A stretch of DNA of 64,000 nucleotides, taken from contig WYBS01000193.1 in assembly GCA_011525755.1 (NCBI GenBank), positions 20,962-84,961 on the forward strand, in the 5' to 3' direction. Position numbers and translations under genes: made by a program. Positions within the stretch are counted from its first letter, which is position 1. Each line of letters begins with the position of its first letter. Source of the stretch: Planctomycetaceae bacterium. Lineage in GTDB: Bacteria > Planctomycetota > PLA2. Below, in pieces: positions 1-25,317 of the stretch. The notes under the pieces are model-generated. The model was not told the origin of the DNA, did no database searches, and was given only the letters and a program-made list of their open reading frames with translations.

Positions 1-3513
<3,513 letters not shown>

Positions 3514-14447: not shown

Positions 14448-16586
14448 GTGCTTAACCAGATGCGGACCGGTATCGAGTTCGGGCGGGGACGGATCTACGC
14501 CTCCGAGGCGTTCGTGAGGCTCGAGGGCCCCGGCCACCTCCTGCCCGCCGACGTCGGGCGCCAGGCAGCGTTCCTCGCCCGCAACGCCCAGGGGTGGGGA
14601 GAGCGGATCCGGCGGATCGCCTCGTTCGCGATCTCGGCCTCTTCGATGCCCTTCCTCGCGGCGATCCGGGACGACCTCGGCATCCGGGCGCTCTTCGCCT
14701 CGATGCGGGGCTACAGCCATGACCGCCTCGACTTCCTCGGCCAGGAGTACTTCGAGCGCTGGCTCCTGCCGCGCATCGACGCCGCCCGGGTCGAACGGCT
14801 GAAGGCCCGGATCGCATCCGGCGAGCGCGTGGTACTCGTGAGCGGCTGGCTGGACCACGTCGTCCGGCCCATCGCCCGCCACCTTGGCGTCGACCGGATC
14901 CTCTGCAACCGGCTCGAGTTCCGGGACGGCAGGGCGACGGGCCGGCTCCTCGACCCGATCATCCCCTCGCGGGGCCGCCACCTGCCCGAGGGCTCCGTCG
15001 TCCAGCCGACCGCGGGCGCCCTCCGGAAGAGCCCGACGATCGTCGTGTTCGAGGACGGCCGGATCCTCGCGCCCTTCTCGGTCCGGGAGACGCTCCGCGG
15101 CAGGCAGTTGCTCCTGATCGGCGTCACGGGCTTCATCGGGAAGGTCTGGCTCGCGAACGTGCTGAACGCGCTCCCCGAGATCGGGAAGGTCTTCTGCCTC
15201 GTGCGCAGGCGCGGGAACACGAGCGCGAAGGCGCGGTTCGAGCGGCTCCTCGCCGAGTCCCCCGTGCTCCGCACGATCCCGCAGGACGTCGTGACCCAGA
15301 AGATCGAGGTCGTCGAGGGCGACATGTGCGAACCGGGGCTCGGCCTCGACGCCGCCACGCGCGACCGCCTCCAGGCGTCGCTCGACGTGATCGTCAACTC
15401 GGGCGGGCTCACCGAGTTCATGCCCGACGTGCGCCTCTCGCTCGCGAGCAACGTGGACTCGACGATCCACGCGGTCGAGTTCCTGCGGGGCTGCGACCAC
15501 GCGTCGCTCCTCCACCTCTCGACCTGCTACGTCGCGGGCCGGCGTTCCGGCCGCATCCCCGAGCGCGCGGAGAAGGACCTCACCCCCGCGGGCACCAGGG
15601 GCTTCGACGTCGAGGACGAGCTGCGCGAGCTGCGCCTGCTCATCGCCGCGAAGGAGCGGGAGTCGGAGAAGCCGGACCTCTTCCCGAACATCCGCCCCCA
15701 CTCGGGCAAGCAGATGAGCGACGTCCAGATGCGGAAGGCGCGCGAGCGCTGGCTCCGCGCGGAGCTCACGCGCCTCGGCATGGAGCGCGCGAACCGCTTC
15801 GGCTGGACGAACACCTACACCTACACGAAGGGCCTCGCCGAGGCGCTGCTCTGCGCGCGCGGCGCCGACCTTCCGATCGCGATCGTGCGCCCGTCGATCG
15901 TCGAGAGCTCCGACAAGGATCCGTTCCGCGGCTGGAACGAGGGCGTGAACACGTCCACCCCGCTCACCTACCTGCTCGGGATGCCCTTCCGGCTGCTCCC
16001 GACGCGGCACGGGCTCCGCCTCGACGTCGTCCCCGTCGACCTCGTCACGCGCGGGATGAACCTCATCGCGGCGGCGCTCGTCCGCCGGACGCACCACCGC
16101 TGCTACCAGATCGCGACGTCGGTCCGGAACCCGCTCGGGATCGCGCAGTCGATCGAGCTCACCTGCCTCGCGCACCGCCGCTACTACCAGGGCCGCCCCG
16201 GGTTCGACGCATGGCTCCGCACCGAGTTCGAGGCGCTGCCGGTCTCGCGTTTCCGCTACCGCGCCTTCTCCGCGCCGGGCCAGCTGGCGGTCGTCCGGGC
16301 GCTGCGCCGCGTCCTCCCGCTCCTCGTGCTGAAGCGCGCGGAGCGAAACCTCGAGAAGGTCGGGAAGATCGTCGAGCTGTACGAGCCCTTCATCCACGAC
16401 AACGACTACGCGTTCGAGGCCGACAACATCGCGCTGCTCGATGCGGCGCTCGTGCCGGAGGAGCGGGAGGCGTTCGGCTGCGACGCCTCCGGGATCGACT
16501 GGCCGACGTACTGGATCGAGACGCACATCCCCGCGCTCCGGAAGTGGTCGTACCCGCTGATCGAGGGGCGCCCGATCGAGGGTTGA
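14448..16586 (+). CDS. Fusion protein: N-terminal HAD-like hydrolase-fold domain (degenerate, no clear DxD) plus alcohol-forming fatty acyl-CoA/ACP reductase (FAR, NAD_binding_4 / male-sterility family)
   Basis: 712 aa. The N-terminal ~200 aa resemble HAD-IB hydrolases (VVLVSGWLDHVVRPIARHLGVDRILCNRLE). The FAR domain has the Rossmann motif LLLIGVTGFIGKVWL, a YTYTK active-site YxxxK and a long C-terminal FAR_C-like region. It is the first gene of a tightly coupled operon. Confidence 0.8.
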   Translation: MLNQMRTGIEFGRGRIYASEAFVRLEGPGHLLPADVGRQAAFLARNAQGWGERIRRIASFAISASSMPFLAAIRDDLGIRALFASMRGYSHDRLDFLGQEYFERWLLPRIDAARVERLKARIASGERVVLVSGWLDHVVRPIARHLGVDRILCNRLEFRDGRATGRLLDPIIPSRGRHLPEGSVVQPTAGALRKSPTIVVFEDGRILAPFSVRETLRGRQLLLIGVTGFIGKVWLANVLNALPEIGKVFCLVRRRGNTSAKARFERLLAESPVLRTIPQDVVTQKIEVVEGDMCEPGLGLDAATRDRLQASLDVIVNSGGLTEFMPDVRLSLASNVDSTIHAVEFLRGCDHASLLHLSTCYVAGRRSGRIPERAEKDLTPAGTRGFDVEDELRELRLLIAAKERESEKPDLFPNIRPHSGKQMSDVQMRKARERWLRAELTRLGMERANRFGWTNTYTYTKGLAEALLCARGADLPIAIVRPSIVESSDKDPFRGWNEGVNTSTPLTYLLGMPFRLLPTRHGLRLDVVPVDLVTRGMNLIAAALVRRTHHRCYQIATSVRNPLGIAQSIELTCLAHRRYYQGRPGFDAWLRTEFEALPVSRFRYRAFSAPGQLAVVRALRRVLPLLVLKRAERNLEKVGKIVELYEPFIHDNDYAFEADNIALLDAALVPEEREAFGCDASGIDWPTYWIETHIPALRKWSYPLIEGRPIEG

Positions 16587-16669
16587 GATGCAGGCGGGCG
16601 ATCGGGGGAGGGCGGGGCCTTGGGTCATCCGATGATTCGGGGCCGGGCTGCGGGAGGGGGGGCCGTCCT

Positions 16670-17806
16670 GTGGCCATCCTCCTGACCGGCGGCACGGGGT
16701 ACATCGGCAGCTACGTGGTCGCCCGGCTCCTCGAGGCGACCCCGGAGCCGCTCCTGCTCCTCGCGCGCAAGGCGTCGAAGGAGGGGCTCTGGCGCGCGCT
16801 CCAGCTCCACCTCGACGAGGCGGCGTTCCGCAAGGCGCTCCGCGACGGACGGATCAAGGGGGTCGAGGGGGACCTCACGGCCCCGGGATTCGGCCTCGAC
16901 GCGGGCGCCCTCGAGCGGCTCACGAAGGAGACCGACTCGATCATCCACATCGCCGCCTCGCTCAACCGGAAGTCGGAGCGCGCCTGCCTCAACACGAACC
17001 TCCGCGGCACGCTCCACCTGATCGAGCTCGCGCGCCGCGCCCAGGACGACCACGGCCTCCGCCGCATCAGCCACGTCTCGACCGTCGCCGTCGCCGGGCA
17101 GCGCCAGGACGAGGTGGTGAAGGAGGACACGGCGATCGACTGGGAGCGGAACGACTACGACCCCTACGCCCGGACGAAGAAGTTCTGCGAGTACATGATC
17201 ACGCGGCTCCTCCCCGAGGTGCCGCGGACGATCTTCCGGCCGAGCGTCGTCCTCGGCGACAGCCGGCGCCCGGAGACGACGCAGTTCGACATGGCGAAGG
17301 CGTTCGTCTTCCTCGCGCGGCTCCCGTTCCTCCCGCTCCGCCGGGACGACCGGATCGACATCGTGCCCGTGGACTACGTCGCGGACGCGATCGCCACGAT
17401 CCACCTGCGCGAGCCCGCGCCGCACTCGATCTACCACCTCGCCGCGGGCGAGGACGCGCCGACCTACGCGGAGGTCACCTCCGCGGTCGCCGACGCGCGA
17501 AGGAAGTCGCCGCCCTGGTTCTGGCCGTGGGCAGAGAGGCCCTTCGCCGGCACCGCGCGCTTCCTCGCGGGGTTCCGCGGCACGGGCGTCGGGAGCGCGG
17601 CCGCGCGCCTCCAGGTGTTCATGCCCTACCTCACCTACAACACGGTCTTCGACAACTCGCGCGTGGTGAGCGCCCTCGGGCGGAAACCCGCGCGCTTCCC
17701 GGCGTACTGCGCGCGGCTCCTCGAGTGGTGCCTCGCGCACAAGTTCGAGTACCCCTACGTGGACCTCCCCCGGGACCCCCTCTCTTCCGCGGAGACGGCT
17801 CGATGA
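16670..17806 (+). CDS. Stand-alone thioester/fatty-acyl reductase (extended SDR, NAD_binding_4-like)
   Basis: GTG start preceded by the strong Shine-Dalgarno GGGAGGGGGGG. The N-terminus is MAILLTGGTGYIGSYVVARLL (TGxxGxxG), with a catalytic YARTK (YxxxK). The stop overlaps the next gene's ATG (ATGATG/TGA). The track ORF 15326-17806 is an out-of-frame read-through artefact upstream of 16670. Confidence 0.8.
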   Translation: MAILLTGGTGYIGSYVVARLLEATPEPLLLLARKASKEGLWRALQLHLDEAAFRKALRDGRIKGVEGDLTAPGFGLDAGALERLTKETDSIIHIAASLNRKSERACLNTNLRGTLHLIELARRAQDDHGLRRISHVSTVAVAGQRQDEVVKEDTAIDWERNDYDPYARTKKFCEYMITRLLPEVPRTIFRPSVVLGDSRRPETTQFDMAKAFVFLARLPFLPLRRDDRIDIVPVDYVADAIATIHLREPAPHSIYHLAAGEDAPTYAEVTSAVADARRKSPPWFWPWAERPFAGTARFLAGFRGTGVGSAAARLQVFMPYLTYNTVFDNSRVVSALGRKPARFPAYCARLLEWCLAHKFEYPYVDLPRDPLSSAETAR

Positions 17807-19206
17807 TGGACCTCGTCCTCGAGGCCTGGATGACCTCCCTCATCGAGGCGAGCAAGCTGCGGTACGTCCTCGGCGGCGGAGATCGCTGGAAGCCGGGCCG
17901 GCCGCTGAAGCTGCTCTTCGTCGGCTACAACGGCGCGCGGAACACCGGCTCCGACGTGCGCGTGGACGGCATGGTGAACCAGATCCGCCACGTCCTCGGC
18001 GCGGCCAACGTCGAGATCTCCGTGATCTCCCAGGACTTCGCGCTCACGAAGGGGTACTTCGGCGGCGCGAAGCTCGTGAAGCTCCAGGACATCTTCCCCC
18101 CCTTCCTCTTCCGCGAGGTGCCGAAGCACGACGGCGTGATCGCATGCGAGGGGTCGATGTTCAAGAGCAAGTTCGCGGACGCGCTCACGGTGATGATGGT
18201 CGGCGCGCTCGGCATCGCATCCGCCTACAACAAGGTCTCCGTCGCCTACGGCGCCGAGGCCGGCCACATGAACCTCGTCCCGCGCTGGATGGTGAAGCGC
18301 TACTGCAAGGACACGCTCGTCGTGACGCGCAGCGAGGAGTCGCGGGCGCTGCTCGGGAGCCTCGGCGTGCCGTCGGAGCTCGGCACCGACACGGCGTGGA
18401 CCTTCGAGCCCCATCCGCCCGAGTACGGGGAGGAGCAGCTCCGGAAGGCGGGCTGGAAGGGGGAGCCGCTCCTCGTCCTCTGCCCCATCAACCCCTTCTG
18501 GTGGCCGGTCAAGGCGTCGGTCGGGAAGGCGCTCCTCCGGCTCTTCGGCGCGTACAAGGAGAGCCACTACCGGTCGATCTACTTCCACAAGTCGGGCCCC
18601 TCGGTCGACGCCGCGTACGAGCGCTACCTCGACGCCTACGCGAACGCGACGAAAGCGTTCCGCGAGCGCCGGAAGGTCTTCCCCGTGCTGGTCGCGATGG
18701 AGCAGCTCGACGCGCGCGCGTGCCGGCGGATCGCGGAGAAGCTCGGCGGCGCGCCGGTCTTCAGCTCGAGCGACTACGACATGTACGAGCTCGTCTCCAT
18801 CGCGCGCAAGGCCGACCTCATGATCTCCTCGCGCTACCACGGCATCGTGACCACGATGCCCGCGCTCGTCGCCTCGGCCGGCGTCACGATGGACGAGCGC
18901 ATCCGCAACCTGATGCGGCAGCGCGGCCAGCCGCAGCTCTCGCTCGAGTGCGACGATCCCGAGCTGGAGAGCAGGATCCTCGCGACCCTCGAGGACCTCC
19001 ACGAGGGCGCGGAACGGGTCCGGGAGGGCATCGGCCGGACCGTCGTCGCCCACCTGAAGGAAATGGCGAAGATGGGCGTCTACTTCGAGGACAACGTCAG
19101 GAAGCTCTACCCCGAGTTCCCCGGAAGGACGGGCGTCCACGGCTGGCGCGAGTACCTCCCGCCGCTCTCGCCGCGCCTCAACGGCCTCGTCGAGCGCTAC
19201 GGTTGA
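17803..19206 (+). CDS. Polysaccharide pyruvyl transferase family protein (CsaB/WcaK-like fold)
   Basis: 467 aa starting MMDLVLEAW. Family-typical N-terminal motif KLLFVGYNGARNTGSDV and C-terminal motif ADLMISSRYHGIVT (compare xLxISxRLHGxI). Its 4-nt start/stop overlaps with both neighbours place it inside the lipid operon. Confidence 0.65.
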   Translation: MMDLVLEAWMTSLIEASKLRYVLGGGDRWKPGRPLKLLFVGYNGARNTGSDVRVDGMVNQIRHVLGAANVEISVISQDFALTKGYFGGAKLVKLQDIFPPFLFREVPKHDGVIACEGSMFKSKFADALTVMMVGALGIASAYNKVSVAYGAEAGHMNLVPRWMVKRYCKDTLVVTRSEESRALLGSLGVPSELGTDTAWTFEPHPPEYGEEQLRKAGWKGEPLLVLCPINPFWWPVKASVGKALLRLFGAYKESHYRSIYFHKSGPSVDAAYERYLDAYANATKAFRERRKVFPVLVAMEQLDARACRRIAEKLGGAPVFSSSDYDMYELVSIARKADLMISSRYHGIVTTMPALVASAGVTMDERIRNLMRQRGQPQLSLECDDPELESRILATLEDLHEGAERVREGIGRTVVAHLKEMAKMGVYFEDNVRKLYPEFPGRTGVHGWREYLPPLSPRLNGLVERYG

Positions 19207-20693
19207 ACTTCCTCGAGCGGATCCACTCGAGCCTCCTCGAGGGCGGCGACCGCGCCGCGGTCCGCGAGGGCCCGCTCTCCGTCCGCGCGCGCGACCTCCT
19301 CGCGATGATCGCGTCCGCCCGCGCGTTCCTGCGCCACGCGGGAGTGAAGCCGAAGGACCGCGTGGCGCTCTGGGGCGACAACAGCGCGCGCTGGGTGGCG
19401 CTCGATCTCGCGATCATGGGCGAGGGCGCGATCACCGTGCCGTTCTACGGCCGCCAGCCCGGGAAGGACGTCCTCCGGATGGTCGCCGACTGCACGCCCG
19501 CGCTCCTCCTCTGCGACACGCGCGAGCGGCTCGACGCGGTCGGCTCCGGCTGCCTCTTCGAGGAGGCGAACGAGGCCGGCAAGGTCGAGGAGCCCCTCCC
19601 CCGCGCCCCCTCCGATCCGGTGCGGATCGTGTACACGTCCGGCACCTCGGGCGAGCCCAAGGGAGCGGTCTTCCACCTCGGGAACGTCGATTTCATGCTC
19701 CCGCGCGTGCTCGGCCGCGTCGAGGAGGTGATGGGCGGCCCGGCCCGGGACGAGCGCGTCTTCCACTACCTCCCCTGCTGCTTCGCGGGGTCGTGGATCC
19801 TCATGCTCAGTTGCCTCGCGCGCGGGACGGAGCTCGTCTTCTGCACCGATCTCGAGAAGCTGAAGGAGGAGATGCGCGCGGCGGATCCGCACTGGATGCT
19901 CAACGTTCCGCTGCTCCTCGAGCGCATGCGCGCGGGGATCGAGCGGCAACTGGGGGGGGCCCGGGGGCCGAAGGCGTGGCTCTGGAGGCGGGCGTTCGGC
20001 CGGAGACTCCTCGCGCCGCTCGTCCGGCGGAGGATCGCGCCCTCGCTCAGGGCGCTGATCTGCGGGTCGGCGCCCCTCTCCGAGGAGACGCAGCGGTTCT
20101 TTATGATGCTCGGGTTGCCCGTGCTCCAGGTCTACGGCCTCACCGAGACGACGGCCATCTGCACGATGGACCGTCCGGGCTCGGTCGTGCCGGGCCGCGT
20201 CGGCAGCGCGGTCGACGGCTGCGAGATGAAGCTGGACGGGAAGGGCGAGATCCTCGTCCGCGGGCCGAACGTGTTCCCCGGGTACTGGGGGAGGGAGCCG
20301 CAGGGCGAGTGGCTCGCGACCGGGGACCTCGGCGACGTGGACGAGGCCGGGCGCTGGCGCATCGTCGGCCGGGCGAAGTACGTGATCGTCCTCGCGTCGG
20401 GCCACAACGTGCCGCCGGAGCCGATCGAGGAGAGGTTCTCGGACCTCGGCCAGGTGATGCTCGTGGGCCACGGGCGGAAGTTCCTCGGGCTTCTCGTGGC
20501 GGGGGACCGGGGGAACGCGGACCTCGCGATCGCCGCCGCGAACAGGGATCTCCCCCACTACAAGCAGGTGCGGGCCTACCGCCGCTGCCCGCCGTTCACG
20601 GTCGAGGAGGGGCTCCTGACCGCGAACGGCAAGCTCCGCCGCGACGCGATCCTCTCGAAGCACGCGACGCTCATCGAGGAGATGTACCGGTGA
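19203..20693 (+). CDS. AMP-dependent synthetase/ligase (fatty acyl-CoA or acyl-ACP ligase)
   Basis: AMP-binding motif YTSGTSGEPKG, then GYGLTET and the C-terminal lysine region. The putative TTG start at 19203 overlaps the upstream TGA (TTGA); a downstream in-frame ATG (MIASARAF) is an alternative start. Confidence 0.85.
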   Translation: MNFLERIHSSLLEGGDRAAVREGPLSVRARDLLAMIASARAFLRHAGVKPKDRVALWGDNSARWVALDLAIMGEGAITVPFYGRQPGKDVLRMVADCTPALLLCDTRERLDAVGSGCLFEEANEAGKVEEPLPRAPSDPVRIVYTSGTSGEPKGAVFHLGNVDFMLPRVLGRVEEVMGGPARDERVFHYLPCCFAGSWILMLSCLARGTELVFCTDLEKLKEEMRAADPHWMLNVPLLLERMRAGIERQLGGARGPKAWLWRRAFGRRLLAPLVRRRIAPSLRALICGSAPLSEETQRFFMMLGLPVLQVYGLTETTAICTMDRPGSVVPGRVGSAVDGCEMKLDGKGEILVRGPNVFPGYWGREPQGEWLATGDLGDVDEAGRWRIVGRAKYVIVLASGHNVPPEPIEERFSDLGQVMLVGHGRKFLGLLVAGDRGNADLAIAAANRDLPHYKQVRAYRRCPPFTVEEGLLTANGKLRRDAILSKHATLIEEMYR

Positions 20694-21454
20694 TCCGCAC
20701 GAAGCTCGAAGGGGGCGTGCTCGAGATCGAGCTCTGCCGGGAGCCCTTGAACGAGATCGGCACCGAGATGCTCGGGGCGCTCGAGAAGGTGGATCTCGGG
20801 GGGGCGCGCGCGGTCGTGCTCCATAGCTCGCTCCGGCAGGGGTTCTGCGCGGGCGCGGATCTGCGCGAGCTCTATCACGCCGGCAAGGGCATGAAGCCCG
20901 CCGAGCGGAGAAAGGGCGTCCGGGAGTTCCTGGGGCGCATCCACGCGTTCCTGAACCGGCTCGACGAGGCGCCGGTGCCGACGGTCGCGGCGGTCCACGG
21001 CGCGGTCTTCGGCGGCGGGCTCGAGCTCGCGCTCGCGTGCGACCTGATCGTCGCCGACCGGTCGACGCGGTTCGCCTTCCCGGAGCTGCGGCTCGGGCTC
21101 GTGCCGGGGTTCGGGGGCATCCCGCGGCTGAAGCGGGACGTCCCGAACTCGCTCGTGCGCGACCTCCTCTTCACGGGCCGCTCGATCAACGCGGAGAAGG
21201 CGCTCCAGGCGGGCCTCGTGAGCCAGGTGGTCGCGGAGGGGCAGGCGCTCCGGGCGGCCCGCGCGACCGCGGCGCAGATGGCGAAGTTCGATCCGGCGAC
21301 GGCGGCGGCGGCGAAGAGGTTCGTGAAGCCGTTCCCGCGGGCGGAGCTGGAGAAGGAGATGGAGCTCTTCCTCGAGCTCTTCGAGCGCCCGGTGGTGCAG
21401 GACGCGCTCCGGAAGTTCGTGGAGGACAAGGGCCCGATGCCCTACCTCCCGTGA
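20690..21454 (+). CDS. Enoyl-CoA hydratase/isomerase (crotonase) family protein
   Basis: 254 aa from a GTG overlapping the upstream stop (GTGA). Crotonase fold signatures: oxyanion-hole region HGAVFGGGLELALACDLIVA, and GFCAGADL earlier. Confidence 0.85.
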   Translation: MIRTKLEGGVLEIELCREPLNEIGTEMLGALEKVDLGGARAVVLHSSLRQGFCAGADLRELYHAGKGMKPAERRKGVREFLGRIHAFLNRLDEAPVPTVAAVHGAVFGGGLELALACDLIVADRSTRFAFPELRLGLVPGFGGIPRLKRDVPNSLVRDLLFTGRSINAEKALQAGLVSQVVAEGQALRAARATAAQMAKFDPATAAAAKRFVKPFPRAELEKEMELFLELFERPVVQDALRKFVEDKGPMPYLP

Positions 21455-21459
21455 TTCGT

Positions 21460-21487
21460 TGTACGGAGCCTGACACGATTCAATGAA
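21460..21487. repeat. 28-bp direct repeat, copy 1 (TGTACGGAGCCTGACACGATTCAATGAA)
   Basis: It lies in the 28-nt gap between the crotonase stop (21454) and the small-peptide ATG (21483). Copy 2 sits 269 bp downstream with 26/28 identity. Confidence 0.8.
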
Positions 21488-21680
21488 CGGGAGGCGCGGC
21501 ATGGGCAAGATCACCCGCCACGAGTTCCTGGGCAGCCGCCTGCTCGTCGTGATCCTCTGCATGACGGTCATCGGGATCCCGATCGCGGTCATCCACCTGA
21601 TCGAGGGGCTCGTCACGATCGAGGAGGAGATCCCGGACCCGACGGCATTCATGGAGGCGTACCGGCGGAAGAACCCCTGA
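21483..21680 (+). CDS. Small hypothetical membrane peptide (one TM helix)
   Basis: 65 aa (or 59 aa from MGKITRHEF at 21501). Hydrophobic core LLVVILCMTVIGIPIAVIHLI. It sits between the crotonase and the ACP inside the operon, and is preceded by copy 1 of a 28-bp repeat and a GGGAGG Shine-Dalgarno. Confidence 0.45.
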   Translation: MNGRRGMGKITRHEFLGSRLLVVILCMTVIGIPIAVIHLIEGLVTIEEEIPDPTAFMEAYRRKNP

Positions 21681-21723
21681 CCGACAGCCCTCGGCGGGCG
21701 AACGCGACCCGTGCGGTAACCTG

Positions 21724-22041
21724 ATGGATGTACGGAGCCTGACACGAATCGATGAATACCAGGTTCTCATTGATAGGTGCCTGGCACACCTCAACGACAT
21801 GCGCACGCAAGAACAGACCGAGAGCGAGCTCCTCGACCTCGCGGCCGCCCACTTCAAGGCGGACCGCAAGACGCTCCGCCCCGAGGACGACATCTTCGAG
21901 AAGCTCGGGATCGACAGCCTCCAGGCCCTCGAGCTCCTGACGAGGCTCGAGCGCCACTTCGGCGTCGAGCTGCCCGACTACGAGCTCCAGGGCGTGAGCG
22001 ACTTCAGGACCCTCGCCGAGCGGATCTTCGTCCGGCTGTGA
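21724..22041 (+). CDS. Acyl carrier protein (dedicated ACP of the operon)
   Basis: [23 protein letters not shown] contains the DSL phosphopantetheine-attachment serine motif. The true start may be the internal MRTQEQTE (21799), giving an 80-aa ACP, because copy 2 of the 28-bp repeat overlaps codons 2-11 of the longer form. The stop overlaps the next GTG (GTGA). Confidence 0.85.
21729..21756. repeat. 28-bp direct repeat, copy 2 (TGTACGGAGCCTGACACGAATCGATGAA)
   Basis: It overlaps the first codons of the long form of the ACP ORF, upstream of the alternative ACP start at 21799. There are two mismatches to copy 1. Confidence 0.8.
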
Positions 22042-23684
22042 TCGACCTCGACCGCCACCCCTCGCTCGGGAGCATGCTCCGGGAGGCCTTGGACCGGTTC
22101 GGGGACGACCTCTGCCTCATCGAGGCCGACCGCGACCGCGAGCGCTGCCGCCTCACCTACGCAGAGGTGCGCGCGGCGCGCGGCAGGCTCGCGGGCGCGC
22201 TCGCCGCGGGCGGCGCCCGCCGCGTCGCGATCCTCATGACGAACCAGTCGAAGTGGCACTTGGCCGCCGCCGCCGCGCTGCACGTCGGCGCGACGGTCGT
22301 GCCGCTCGACCCGAAGCTCTCGCCCGAGGAGCACGCGACGCTCCTGAAGCACGCGGGCGCGGACACGCTCTTCGTCGAGCATCACCTGTACCGGAAGCTC
22401 GCCTACGACGGCCGCGCGATCGTCACCGAGGCGCCGCCGGGCTTCGATCTCCGGGGCGCCGCGCGGTTCGAGGAGTGCGAGGGCGAGGAGCCGCCGCTCG
22501 CGGAGCGCGCCCGCACCGACGTCGCCTGCATCGTCTACTCCTCGGGAACCGGCGGCCGGCCGAAGGGGTGCATGCTCACCCACGGCAACTACCTGTCGCA
22601 GCTGAAGGCGCTGCTCGAGAAGTTCCGCTTCGAGCGCGGCGACCGCTACCTCTCGATCCTCCCCACGAACCACGCGATCGACTTCATGTGCGGGTTCCTC
22701 GGCCCCTACGCGTGCGGCGCGACGGTCGTCCACCTGCGGACGCTCCGCCCCGAGTTCGTCCGCGACGCCTTCCCGCGCTACCGGATCGCCTATGCGGCGC
22801 TCGTGCCGATGCTCCTCCGGAACCTCCAGGCGGGCCTCGAGGAGAAGTTCAAGGCGCTCTCCGGCCCCCGCCGCCCCCTCCTTTCCGCGCTCCGGTGGTT
22901 GAACCGCGTCCTCACGAGGCGTCGCCCGCATCTCGGCCTCTCGAAGAGGCTCCTGCGCCCGGTGCACAGGGGGTTCGGGGGCGCGCTCAAGGCATTCTTC
23001 GCCGGCGGCGCCTTCACCGACCCGAAGATGCTCCGCTTCTTCTACGACCTGGGGATCCAGGTCGCGAACGGCTACGGCTTGACCGAGGCGGGCACGGTCG
23101 TCACCCTCAACGACTTCGAGGACTACCGCCCGGACACCGTCGGCCGTCCGCTCGAGGGCACCGAGGTGCGGATCGCCGACGCGGGCCCGGACGGGATCGG
23201 CGAGGTGTGCGTCAGGGGACCGACGGTGATGGCGGGGTATCTCGACGACCCCGAGCTGACCGCGCAGACGATCGAGGGCGGCTGGCTCCGGACGGGCGAC
23301 CTCGGCCGGCTCGAGCCTTCCGGGCACCTGTGCCTCTTCGGACGCAAGAAGAACATGATCGTGACCGCGGGCGGGAAGAACGTGTACCCGGAGGACATCG
23401 AGAACGTCTTCGACGGAGTGCCGGTGAAGGAGTTCTGCGTCTTCGCGGGCCACGTGATCCGCGACGACCGGAAGGAGCAGCTCCTCGTCGTCGTGCGGCC
23501 GGACGGCCGGGAGTGGCTCGCCGACCTGCAGGCGCGCAACCGGAAGCTCCCGGACTACAAGCGCGTGCATGCCTACATCCCGTGGGAGAAGGACTTCCCG
23601 CGGACCGCGTCGCTGAAGATCAAGCGCGACGCGCTCGCGGACGACCTCCGGGCGGCGGCGGGCGCGCCGGTGGTCGACCTGTGA
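22038..23684 (+). CDS. AMP-dependent synthetase/ligase, second copy (candidate acyl-ACP synthetase loading the adjacent ACP)
   Basis: 548 aa from a GTG. AMP-binding motif [19 protein letters not shown], and a C-terminal [10 protein letters not shown]. It lies immediately downstream of the ACP with a 4-nt overlap. Confidence 0.85.
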
Positions 23685-24574
23685 CGCTTCCTGTAGCGCT
23701 CGCTGTCGTCAACCCGCACGCCGGCGGCGGACGCTGCGGGAGAAAGGCCGACGAGGCTCTCGCGAGGCTCCGGAAGGCGGGCGTCGCGTTCGAGGTGGCG
23801 CGGACGGAGCGGCCGGGCCACGCGGTCGAGATCGTGCGGGAGGCGTACGGGCGCGGCGTCCGCCGTTTCCTCTCGGTCGGGGGCGACGGCACCGGGTTCG
23901 AAGTGGTCAACGGCCTCCGATGGGAGGGGTCCGAGGGGGACCGCGCGACCCTCGGCTTCCTGCCGCTCGGGACCGGGAACTCCTTCCTGCGCGACTTCGA
24001 GGGCGACCCGTTCGAGCGCATCGCCTCGGGCCGGACGCGGCCGTGCGACGTGGTCCGGGTCCGGCACGCGGGGGGCGATGTCTACTCGATCAACCTCGTC
24101 GCCCTCGGGTTCCCGGCGGACGTCGGCGAGGCGACGAACCGGCGATTCAAGTGGGCGGGGCCCATGGGCTACGTCCTCGGCGTCCTCTCGTGCCTCGCGC
24201 GCCGCCCGCGCCACGTCCTCCCGCTCCGCGCGGACGGCGCGGAGGCGTGGGAGCGGGATCCCTGCCTCATGCTCGTCTTCGCGAACAGCCGCTTCACGGG
24301 CGGGAAGATGATGATCGCGCCGGACGCGCGCCCGGACGACGGGCTCATGGAGTTCGTGCGGCTCGGCCCCCTCGGACGGCTGTCGATCGTGCGCCGGCTC
24401 CCGCGCCTCTTCGACGGAACCTACGTGCGGTTGCCCGGCGCCTCGCGCCGGGGCGTGCACCGCGTCGATTTCGATCTCCCGGGGCCGGTGGGTGTCATGA
24501 TCGACGGAGAGGTGCTTCATCTCCACTGCCGCTCCCTCGAGGTGCTGCCCGGGAGGGTCGACGTCCTCGCATGA
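23681..24574 (+). CDS. Diacylglycerol/lipid kinase catalytic-domain protein (YegS/BmrU, sphingosine-kinase-like family)
   Basis: GTG start overlapping the upstream TGA. DAGK_cat signature [16 protein letters not shown], with a later GTGNSF. 297 aa. Confidence 0.82.
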
Positions 24575-25317
24575 AGGGCGGCTGGCTCGTGCTCAGGAGC
24601 ACGGTGCTCTGGACGGTGAGCATCCTCCACTTCTGCGTCGTCGTGCCGCTCGTGCTCCTGCTCGCCGCGATCCTCGGCTGGCAAAGGGTCGAGCCGCTCC
24701 TGCTCCTCGGCTGCAAGAACATCGTCCGCCTCGCGGGCGCGCGGCTCGTCGCGCACGTCCCCGAGGGCTTCGACCCCCGCGTCACCGGCTTTTTCGTCAG
24801 CAACCACGTGAACATCTTCGACCCGTTCGTCCTCTACTCGGCGGTCCCGAGGAAGTTCCGCGGCCTCGAGCTCGAGTCGCACTTCAGGATCCCGGTCTAC
24901 GGCTGGCTCATGAAGCGGTTCGGCAACGTGCCGGTGCCGGACGCGCGCACGCCGTCCGGGCTCAAGAAGACCTACCGGCTCGCGGGCGAGGCGATCGCGG
25001 CGGGAACCTGCCTGATGGTCTTCCCGGAGGGGAGCCGCACCCTCGACGGGCGCGTGGGCGAGTTCGAGGACGGAGTGTTCCGGATGGCGATCCAGCTGCA
25101 GGCGCCGATCACGCCGGTCTCCATCGTGGGCTCGTTCCGCTGGCAGAACAAGCTGTCGAGGCTGCTCCGGCCCGCGACGGTCCACGTCCACGTGCACGAG
25201 ACGGTGGACGTGACGGGGCTCACGCGGAAGGACCTCGACACGCTGCGCGAGCGCGTCCGCGCGACCGTGGCCGCCCCCGTCCACGCCGCCCTCGACGGGT
25301 CACGGCAGGAGCGCTGA
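24571..25317 (+). CDS. 1-acyl-sn-glycerol-3-phosphate (lysophospholipid) acyltransferase, PlsC family
   Basis: ATG overlaps the upstream TGA (ATGA). N-terminal TM segment; acyltransferase motifs HX4D (SNHVNIFD), FPEGSRT and a later VPIxxV-like block. It is the last gene of the operon. Confidence 0.85.
   Translation: MKGGWLVLRSTVLWTVSILHFCVVVPLVLLLAAILGWQRVEPLLLLGCKNIVRLAGARLVAHVPEGFDPRVTGFFVSNHVNIFDPFVLYSAVPRKFRGLELESHFRIPVYGWLMKRFGNVPVPDARTPSGLKKTYRLAGEAIAAGTCLMVFPEGSRTLDGRVGEFEDGVFRMAIQLQAPITPVSIVGSFRWQNKLSRLLRPATVHVHVHETVDVTGLTRKDLDTLRERVRATVAAPVHAALDGSRQER

Follow-up and report, generated by a model that had tools for sequence, protein, structure and literature searches.

Repetitive extragenic palindromes (REPs) are short palindromes outside genes that occur as singlets and as inverted doublets (REPINs) and that flank single-copy genes for REP-associated tyrosine transposases (RAYTs) (PMC3116915, PMC5581495). 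Di Nocera et al. (2013) described RAYT-like genes with terminal inverted repeats (TIRs) in place of GTAG-tagged REPs (TIRtrons, TIRYT; PMC3733652). TIRYT repeats form moderately abundant, partly self-complementary families and are found as singles and as dimers (PMC3733652). Quentin et al. (2018) assigned TIRYT to subclass 2.1 of the TnpA-Y1 proteins, which are long and carry a C-terminal Bac_DnaA_C, HTH_23 or HTH_28 domain, and reported no REP-like sequences near subclass 2.1 genes (PMC6006769). Here we analyze a near-identical 28-bp direct repeat in a 64,000-nt stretch of contig WYBS01000193.1 from a Planctomycetaceae bacterium (the whole stretch is called the window). The two copies lie in a block of lipid genes, one upstream of a gene for a small peptide and the other upstream of a gene for an acyl carrier protein (ACP).

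We consider it very probable that both copies are dispersed extragenic repeats of the REP/REPIN or TIR type, cognate to a Y1 transposase of the RAYT/TIRYT type and belonging to uncultured Planctomycetota of ∼70% GC. They are most likely mobile-element units lodged in two gaps of the operon, rather than a lipid-specific control site. The family has several marks of REP/REPIN-RAYT or TIR-TIRYT systems. It is multicopy and extragenic, it forms inverted doublets, and it flanks a Y1/HUH gene whose product has the HUH motif, the catalytic tyrosine and the class-2 signature Y---NP.

RESULTS

Two copies of the repeat occupy two gaps between genes

Reading of the sequence and a pattern search placed copy 1, TGTACGGAGCCTGACACGATTCAATGAA, at 21460-21487 and copy 2, TGTACGGAGCCTGACACGAATCGATGAA, at 21729-21756. 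The two share 26 of 28 positions, on one strand and spaced 269 bp apart, exactly as an earlier note on this DNA had reported; none of 100 dinucleotide-preserving shuffles produced a match. No third copy was found in the 64-kb window, either with up to three mismatches or with a hidden Markov model (HMM) of the family described below. The features of the element are as follows (related loci and contigs carry L numbers).

21455..21488 (+): copy 1, a singlet of the repeat family; family HMM E = 2e-13; present at the same junction in L007, L025 and L050
21729..21756 (+): copy 2, left arm of a degenerate inverted doublet; family HMM E = 9e-10
21763..21798 (-): tentative degenerate inverted partner (right arm) of copy 2; ends ...CCTCAACGAC and abuts the ACP start codon
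21728..21790 (+): species-specific segment of ∼63 nt with copy 2 and most of its partner; absent from L009 and L050

Family likeness of copy 1 begins 5 nt further upstream than the 28-mer, with TTCGT at 21455. A 5′ half-stem, TTCGTTG (21455-21461), leads into the core TGTACGGAGCCTGACAC (21460-21476), followed by a variable GATT and a 3′ half-stem, CAATGAA (21481-21487). The element abuts the stop codon TGA of an enoyl-CoA hydratase gene (21452-21454) and lies within a 46-nt gap between that stop and the start of a 59-aa peptide gene at 21501. Thirteen nucleotides separate the end of copy 1 from the peptide start, and a GGGAGG Shine–Dalgarno sequence lies downstream of the copy. Copy 2 has its core at 21729-21745 and its 3′ half-stem, CGATGAA, at 21750-21756, with GATGGA replacing the canonical TTCGT of the 5′ flank. 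It sits in the 118 nt that separate the stop of the peptide gene (21680) from the first codon of the ACP gene (21799), where GC is 0.54 around the copy versus 0.70 for the window overall. Both copies are extragenic, as judged from a frame plot of GC content at third codon positions (GC3), from Pfam, and from gene calls on contigs of the same species. Copy 1 does not, as the earlier note had it, fill the only gap in the operon: the block of overlapping genes has two gaps, and a further gap of 83 nt lies at 16587-16669.

Each 28-mer ends in ATGAA, and the earlier note placed both ATGs out of frame with the gene downstream. This is right for copy 2, whose ATG (21752) is out of frame with the ACP gene, and wrong for copy 1, whose ATG (21483) is in frame with the peptide open reading frame (ORF), 18 nt upstream of its start at 21501. 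Relatives lack the latter ATG (L007), so it is not a conserved peptide start. The view that conservation is at the level of nucleotides, not protein, is supported.

Copy 2 appears to be one arm of a doublet. The inverted-repeat score of the doublet was reached by only 4 of 2000 shuffles, and a hairpin with the left arm is predicted. The right arm also resembles the right arm of doublet L012b, to a degree reached by 2 of 2000 shuffles. We regard this arm as tentative because the family HMM misses it (E > 10). Copy 2 itself matches L012b, from another genome, at 27 of 28 positions and is thus nearer to it than to copy 1, which indicates that the two window copies are alike through the family consensus and not through local duplication.

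The repeat belongs to a dispersed extragenic family

The 17-nt core TGTACGGAGCCTGACAC matched 31 metagenome loci, ∼20 of which (GC 0.65-0.72) share the flanks TTCGTTG ... CAACGAA/CAATGAA. Another ∼12 metagenome matches, of low GC, and the genome matches L010 and L013 share nothing beyond the core and were dismissed as chance. A scan of viral contigs gave four low-GC matches, two of them on the contigs of metagenome matches L028 and L034; none has the flanks, and these too were taken as chance. In the Planctomycetota metagenome-assembled genome (MAG) SMAG_U1411, the degenerate 19-mer TGTACGGAGCCTGACACSM, which is the core plus two partly specified bases, occurs at four places on three contigs. 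The HMM added a fifth copy and an inverted partner, for a total of at least five intact copies and one diverged arm. These copies lie in gaps between divergent, convergent and tandem genes, the last antisense upstream of clpP. Such contexts rule out a promoter or a 5′-untranslated element of fixed sense. The wider search for the 28-mer that the earlier note had proposed finds the core beside unrelated genes in ∼20 high-GC contigs, and the element is not specific to the operon.

All 26 elements inspected (window and L007-L045) fall outside GC3-based gene calls, in either orientation and between divergent, convergent or tandem gene pairs. Their neighbors are unrelated, including clpP and genes for a lipoprotein, a PIN toxin and an amidinotransferase-like protein as well as lipid genes, and some elements lie at gene 3′ ends. 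Among these elements the outer 5′ end is very often 0-4 nt from a stop codon (TGA, TAA or TAG, then TTCGT), and for many the distance is 0-3 nt. Extreme shortness of the intergenic gaps could explain this, as could a preference for such targets. Several short-read contigs begin or end at the element: L050 and L055-L058 at position 1, L009 and L060-L063 at position 5, and L011, L044 and L045 near their ends. That contigs from many samples break there is the assembly behavior expected of a repeat. Partial tandem duplications stand beside full copies in L038 (1140-1195) and L037 (306-323), which suggests slippage or repeated insertion at one site.

The unit measures ∼34 nt and consists of an outer inverted repeat, TTCGTTG ... 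CAACGAA/CAATGAA, the invariant asymmetric core and 3-4 variable bases; the consensus from 28 copies is nnnTTCGTTGTACGGAGCCTGACACnnTTCAACGAA. The consensus TTCGTTGTACGGAGCCTGACACnnTTCAACGAA bears neither the GTAG nor the CGTC tag, one of which stands at one end of a strong palindrome of 20-40 nt in classical REPs. Across the outer inverted repeat of 7-8 bp, pairing holds in 82% of cells, and changes on both sides are seen in five of the eight pairs (e.g. TCCGTTG/CAACGGA, TTCATTG/CAATGAA and TGTTG/CAACA). Covariation in this stem was 0.237, versus 0.185 in shuffles (6 of 500 reach the observed value), and all slid registers scored lower. G-U and A-C intermediates are about equally frequent (13 versus 9), so neither strand is favored. 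Seven convergent inverted doublets were found (window, L012b, L024, L029, L033, L035 and L037), with spacers of 0-60 nt. Folded with RNA parameters, their hairpins range from -19 kcal/mol, for the window's own 72-nt doublet, to -79 kcal/mol.

Inverted copies flank a Y1 transposase gene

In L019, a 344-aa ORF (777-1811) lies between inverted exact-core copies at 705-741 (+) and 1800-1838 (-), 1.1 kb apart. L054 has the same arrangement, with a gene at 990-1976 between inverted exact-core copies at 880-915 (+) and 1965-2000 (-). Its product, P0015, is 60% identical to the L019 protein, and the gene is flanked by the inverted exact core in L054-L058. An orthologue with 88% identity to the L019 transposase adjoins an element in L042. 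A more distant homologue, P0028 (57% identity; Planctomycetota MAG; L059), has the variant GTACGGTGCCAGGCTCCGA on both sides of its gene as an inverted pair, and thus repeat and enzyme vary together. Transposases in family loci are 330-344 aa long. In both L019 (1800-1811) and L054 (1965-1976), the transposase gene runs into the right-hand repeat, whose inner half-stem supplies the final codons and the stop (CGT TGA). A terminal R is shared by most close homologues, suggesting that this overlap of gene and repeat is old.

The L019 ORF matched Pfam Y1_Tnp with 24.1 bits (cut-off 23). Of the 479 homologues recovered, many are called RayT by JGI, and several come from Planctomycetota MAGs. In an alignment of 25, the HUH motif (THFH) and RYIDxN do not vary, and RYIDxN(A/P)V varies little if at all; Y1_Tnp was detected in 23, a C-terminal helix-turn-helix (HTH) of the Sigma70_r4_2 type in 13, and HTH_23 in five. 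The transposase profile also gave weak matches to DnaA domain IV. A phmmer search of the PDB with the transposase returned no meaningful match. The RAYT motif Y..NP, searched as a regular expression, had no matches, and some members of the clade have Y...NA. The sequencing runs that yielded P0015 (SRR10807893 and SRR31893987) also yield contigs of the window's species, and the left repeat of P0015 ends in CAATGAA, like copy 1.

Relatives differ in which copies they carry

Orthologous loci were found through the peptide protein, and hence without bias towards the repeat; L025 was found via the DNA core. Scanning metagenome contigs at the protein level, with an alignment of the peptide, confirmed no loci. 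Contigs L001-L006, of the same species, are identical to the window. By nucleotide identity of the ligase gene, L009 is the closest relative (92%), and L007 is at 82%.

Copy 2 is absent from L009, L050, L007, L051 and L052, such that, of the loci examined, only those of the window's own species carry it. Aligned to L009 and L050, the window proves longer by ∼63 nt (21728-21790) in the interval from CCTGATGG to the ACP start; at this site L050 reads CCTGATGGCCACTCGAATGCGC. The segment amounts to 21 codons, in frame and stop-free, with boundaries uncertain by ∼8 nt in the alignment. Comparison with L009 and L050 shows no target-site duplication where copy 2 is inserted. Copy 1 is more widely shared, being present in L007, L050 and L025, and its 5′ 22 nt are identical in the window, L007 and L050. 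L051 retains a remnant, TTCGCCGTCCTCAACGAA, and L052 has none, with gene order kept in both. In L025 the order is hydratase-element-ACP. The L009 contig starts with a variant of the repeat (19/19 match).

The spacer between the peptide and ACP genes holds something else in the P0003 JGI contigs (3300043331 and 3300056388), namely two genes encoding 86 aa (weak DUF4258 match) and 89 aa, which look like a toxin-antitoxin pair. This spacer has thus received different insertions in different lineages.

The gene block and a conserved motif upstream of the ACP gene

The genes around the copies, identified mostly by GC3 frame plot and Pfam, are listed with the one other conserved feature of the locus.

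14448-16586 (+): fatty acyl reductase/HAD; GC3 frame plot and Pfam
about 16670-17806 (+): second NAD_binding_4 reductase; GC3 frame plot and Pfam
17803-19206 (+): pyruvyl-transferase-like protein; GC3 frame plot and Pfam
19203-20693 (+): AMP ligase; GC3 frame plot and Pfam
20690..21454 (+): enoyl-CoA hydratase; ECH_1 E = 1.5e-45; gene calls on L001
21501..21680 (+): conserved 59-aa peptide with a predicted membrane helix, between the copies; GC3 = 0.94
21708..21723 (+): spacer motif CCCGTGCGGTAACCTG, upstream of the ACP gene; in every orthologue, unique in the window and not part of the repeat
21799..22041 (+): ACP, 80 aa, starts MRTQEQ, downstream of copy 2; PP-binding E = 7e-13
22041-23684 (+): second AMP ligase; GC3 frame plot and Pfam
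23681-24574 (+): DAGK/YegS kinase; GC3 frame plot and Pfam
24571-25317 (+): PlsC acyltransferase; GC3 frame plot and Pfam

Between 17.8 and 25.3 kb, adjacent genes overlap by 4 nt save at two gaps, each of which holds one repeat copy; the copies are presumably transcribed, given their place within this block. We take the set at 14448-25317 to resemble a split version of multidomain bacterial systems that make ether lipids or fatty-alcohol lipids. Pfam gave no match for the peptide. Ten homologues, with 61-100% identity, all begin MGK, and together with the GC3 of 0.94 they mark this as a real gene on sequence criteria. It is missing from L025, where hydratase, repeat and ACP are contiguous (L025 2081-2176, minus strand).

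The earlier note proposed that the ACP starts at the internal MRTQEQ (21799) instead of 21724, and this proves correct. A start region reading ATGCG(C/G)ACGCA is conserved in all orthologues (L007, L009, L025, L050, L051 and L052), whereas an ATG equivalent to 21724 occurs only in the window, L009 and L050 and is missing in L007, L025, L051 and L052; we therefore place the start at 21799. The PP-binding domain spans residues 10-76 of the 80-aa product, and gene calls on same-species contigs likewise give 80 aa. The ∼63-nt insertion keeps the ATG at 21724 in the ACP frame and stop-free, resulting in a 105-aa ORF (21724-22041). GC3 and the orthologues argue that this extension is not translated. 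A 103-aa ACP call exists in one ENA relative (P0146). At ≥90% identity, the window ACP falls into one cluster with a protein whose annotation is Planctomycetota.

Motif CCCGTGCGGTAAYCTG is kept in L007, L009, L025, L050, L051 and L052 regardless of what else the spacer contains. It includes a -10-like TAACCT, and the copy 2 insertion moved it ∼63 nt further from the ACP start. As the only locus-specific conserved non-coding sequence here, the motif is a better candidate than the 28-mer for locus-specific regulation. A scan of 21000-22300 found neither a sigma-70-like promoter nor an intrinsic terminator, and an Rfam search of 20500-23000 (E ≤ 10) returned nothing overlapping either copy.

DISCUSSION

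The 28-bp repeat is a member of a family spread over extragenic sites. Some members form doublets, relatives differ in the sites they have occupied, and an inverted pair encloses a transposase gene. By analogy to IS200/IS605 and RAYT enzymes, the transposase would recognize the unit or doublet as folded single-stranded DNA (ssDNA), and its catalytic tyrosine would cut and rejoin units, seeding copies into short intergenic gaps. Copy 1 would then be an old singlet lodged after the hydratase stop. Copy 2 would be a decayed doublet that entered the peptide-ACP spacer, seen in the window's own species only among the loci examined. Within one transcript the two copies are most likely passengers, and effects on the operon, such as mRNA hairpins altering stability or coupling, would be a by-product.

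Several observations weigh against this interpretation. Copy number looks low, with two copies in 64 kb and five or six in one MAG, as against hundreds in classical REP families, and the GTAG or CGTC tag is lacking. Folded as ssDNA, singlets reach only -2.6 to -6.6 kcal/mol, which is weak; the fold of copy 1 has z = 0.15, and copy 2 gives none. On the enzyme side, the best NCBIfam match of the L019 ORF is REP_Tyr_transpos, at 48 bits, below the equivalog cut-off of 80, and the profile gave a weak match (E = 0.086) to E. coli TnpA-REP, whose structure is known (4ER8). The 64-kb window itself encodes no relative of the transposase; P0015 is probably the window organism's own enzyme, judging from the shared sequencing runs. 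Loci from the core search are biased towards intact cores. The case for mobility of the repeat is indirect, coming from the presence or absence of copy 2 among relatives. Finally, over 22 nt copy 1 does not differ at all between the window and L007, whose ligase genes are 82% identical; such conservation is beyond the expectation for neutral decay and could point to a host function. It is rather unlikely, in our estimate, that the repeat population spreads with the long HTH-bearing RAYT branch (TIRYT/subclass 2.1-like) and that copy 1 in addition has a host-level role, which would be, for example, that of an intercistronic mRNA element or of a site for the transposase HTH domain acting as a regulator.

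A related possibility, compatible with a mobile origin, is that the host has co-opted copy 1, which would now act between the cistrons as an RNA or DNA element. Copy 1 might form a hairpin that sets mRNA stability or translational coupling of the hydratase and peptide/ACP genes, or it might be a site for the transposase HTH. We consider this unlikely. The 22 nt shared by the window, L007 and L050 speak for it, against coding DNA that is 82-85% identical between the window and L007, as do the family member found at the hydratase-peptide junction in five of seven lineages and the location of both gaps in one block of genes overlapping by 4 nt. The region 21425-21515 also folds (-37.5 kcal/mol, z = -3.4), such that the end of the hydratase ORF is paired with the peptide Shine–Dalgarno sequence and the element lies in the loop. 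Yet L052 dispenses with the element and L051 keeps only a remnant, both with intact gene order, and L025 has the element but no peptide gene. The singlet hairpin is weak, and the near balance of G-U and A-C intermediates shows no strand preference that would point to RNA. Much the same contexts tell against the dedicated RNA element that the earlier note had offered as one role for the repeat, since the unit has no Rfam match and stands in unrelated surroundings in either orientation. Nor does its suggestion of an internal promoter hold up, given the lack of a sigma-70-like site and the absence of copy 2 from orthologous loci outside the species.

It is very unlikely that a transcription factor of the lipid operon uses the copies as repeated operators or as a promoter. 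The core has partial dyad symmetry (TGT-N10-ACA) and inverted flanks, small genes follow both copies, and copy 1 is conserved in three relatives, all of which would suit an operator. But the same element, in no fixed orientation to genes, stands beside clpP, lipoprotein and PIN toxin genes, between convergent genes and around the transposase gene, so the lipid-responsive operator proposed in the earlier note is not supported. Regulon sites would be degenerate, unlike a core identical at 17 of 17 positions over sites and species, and neither related downstream genes nor a consistent promoter position was found. All relatives outside the species lack copy 2, and no promoter-like site is present. 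It is highly improbable that the copies are miniature inverted-repeat transposable elements (MITEs) from a classical DDE insertion sequence, not partners of a Y1 enzyme. Doublets do resemble two terminal inverted repeats around a short variable spacer; however, a Y1/HUH gene is the only gene found between inverted pairs, at two independent loci and in an orthologue, and its stop codon lies inside the right-hand copy. We saw no target-site duplication at copy 2 and no DDE transposase. Barely credible, lastly, is that copy 2 arose from copy 1 by local duplication within the operon. The 26/28 identity, shared strand and 269-bp spacing would fit, but nothing beyond the element is duplicated, copy 2 is closer to another genome's copy, it came with an inverted partner that copy 1 lacks, and both differences fall at family-variable positions. 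Resemblances to CRP/NtcA-like or LexA-like boxes were dropped given the distribution of the family. We also reject an integron site of the attC type, since the order of GTT and AAC in the core is reversed relative to attC and no integrase is present.

Nothing about the repeat indicates that the ACP and peptide genes are under lipid-responsive control. The data settle the ACP start and identify both operon gaps as insertion sites. They also bring to light an apparently undescribed family of repeats from uncultured Planctomycetota, linked to a RAYT-like transposase that is long and carries a C-terminal HTH. Its members occur both singly and as doublets, one repeat variant is paired with a variant of the transposase, and some copies have been kept at orthologous sites. 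The family could be used to test DNA recognition by the long branch of RAYT-like enzymes.

Comparison with known systems

Correia/NEMIS, ERIC and RUP elements are MITEs derived from DDE insertion sequences; they make target-site duplications and can fold in mRNA, altering expression. The present repeat is like them in being a small non-coding inverted-repeat element beside or between co-transcribed genes, and unlike them in its Y1 partner and in the lack of a visible duplication. The intercistronic REPs of E. coli malEFG could stabilize the upstream mRNA or change the ratio of expression. Copy 1 and copy 2 similarly lie in intercistronic gaps of a polycistronic operon, but the singlet hairpin is much weaker.

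Closer parallels exist with the REP/REPIN-RAYT systems of E. coli and Pseudomonas (Nunvar 2010; Bertels & Rainey 2011, PMC3116915; Ton-Hoang 2012; Messing 2012, PMC3479197). Both have extragenic singlets and hairpin-forming inverted doublets, and in both an inverted pair flanks a Y1/HUH gene. Repeat variants go with transposase variants, and copies persist at orthologous sites, in either case. The differences are several. Our family lacks the 5′ GTAG and has a low apparent copy number; it has a 17-nt asymmetric core in a weak 7-bp stem in place of a strong GC-rich palindrome; and its transposase is twice as long, with an added HTH domain.

It is the TIRYT description that the present family fits best, with a provisional assignment to subclass 2.1 from length and domains. 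The repeat is without the GGGGWSAS motif reported for many TIRYT repeats, and, unlike what Quentin et al. found for subclass 2.1, a flanking repeat is here both clear and dispersed. In other respects the likeness is close: a RAYT-like Y1 protein of 330-344 aa ends in a C-terminal helix-turn-helix, its gene is flanked by partly self-complementary terminal inverted repeats, and the same repeats occur elsewhere in the genome as a moderately abundant family of singles and dimers.

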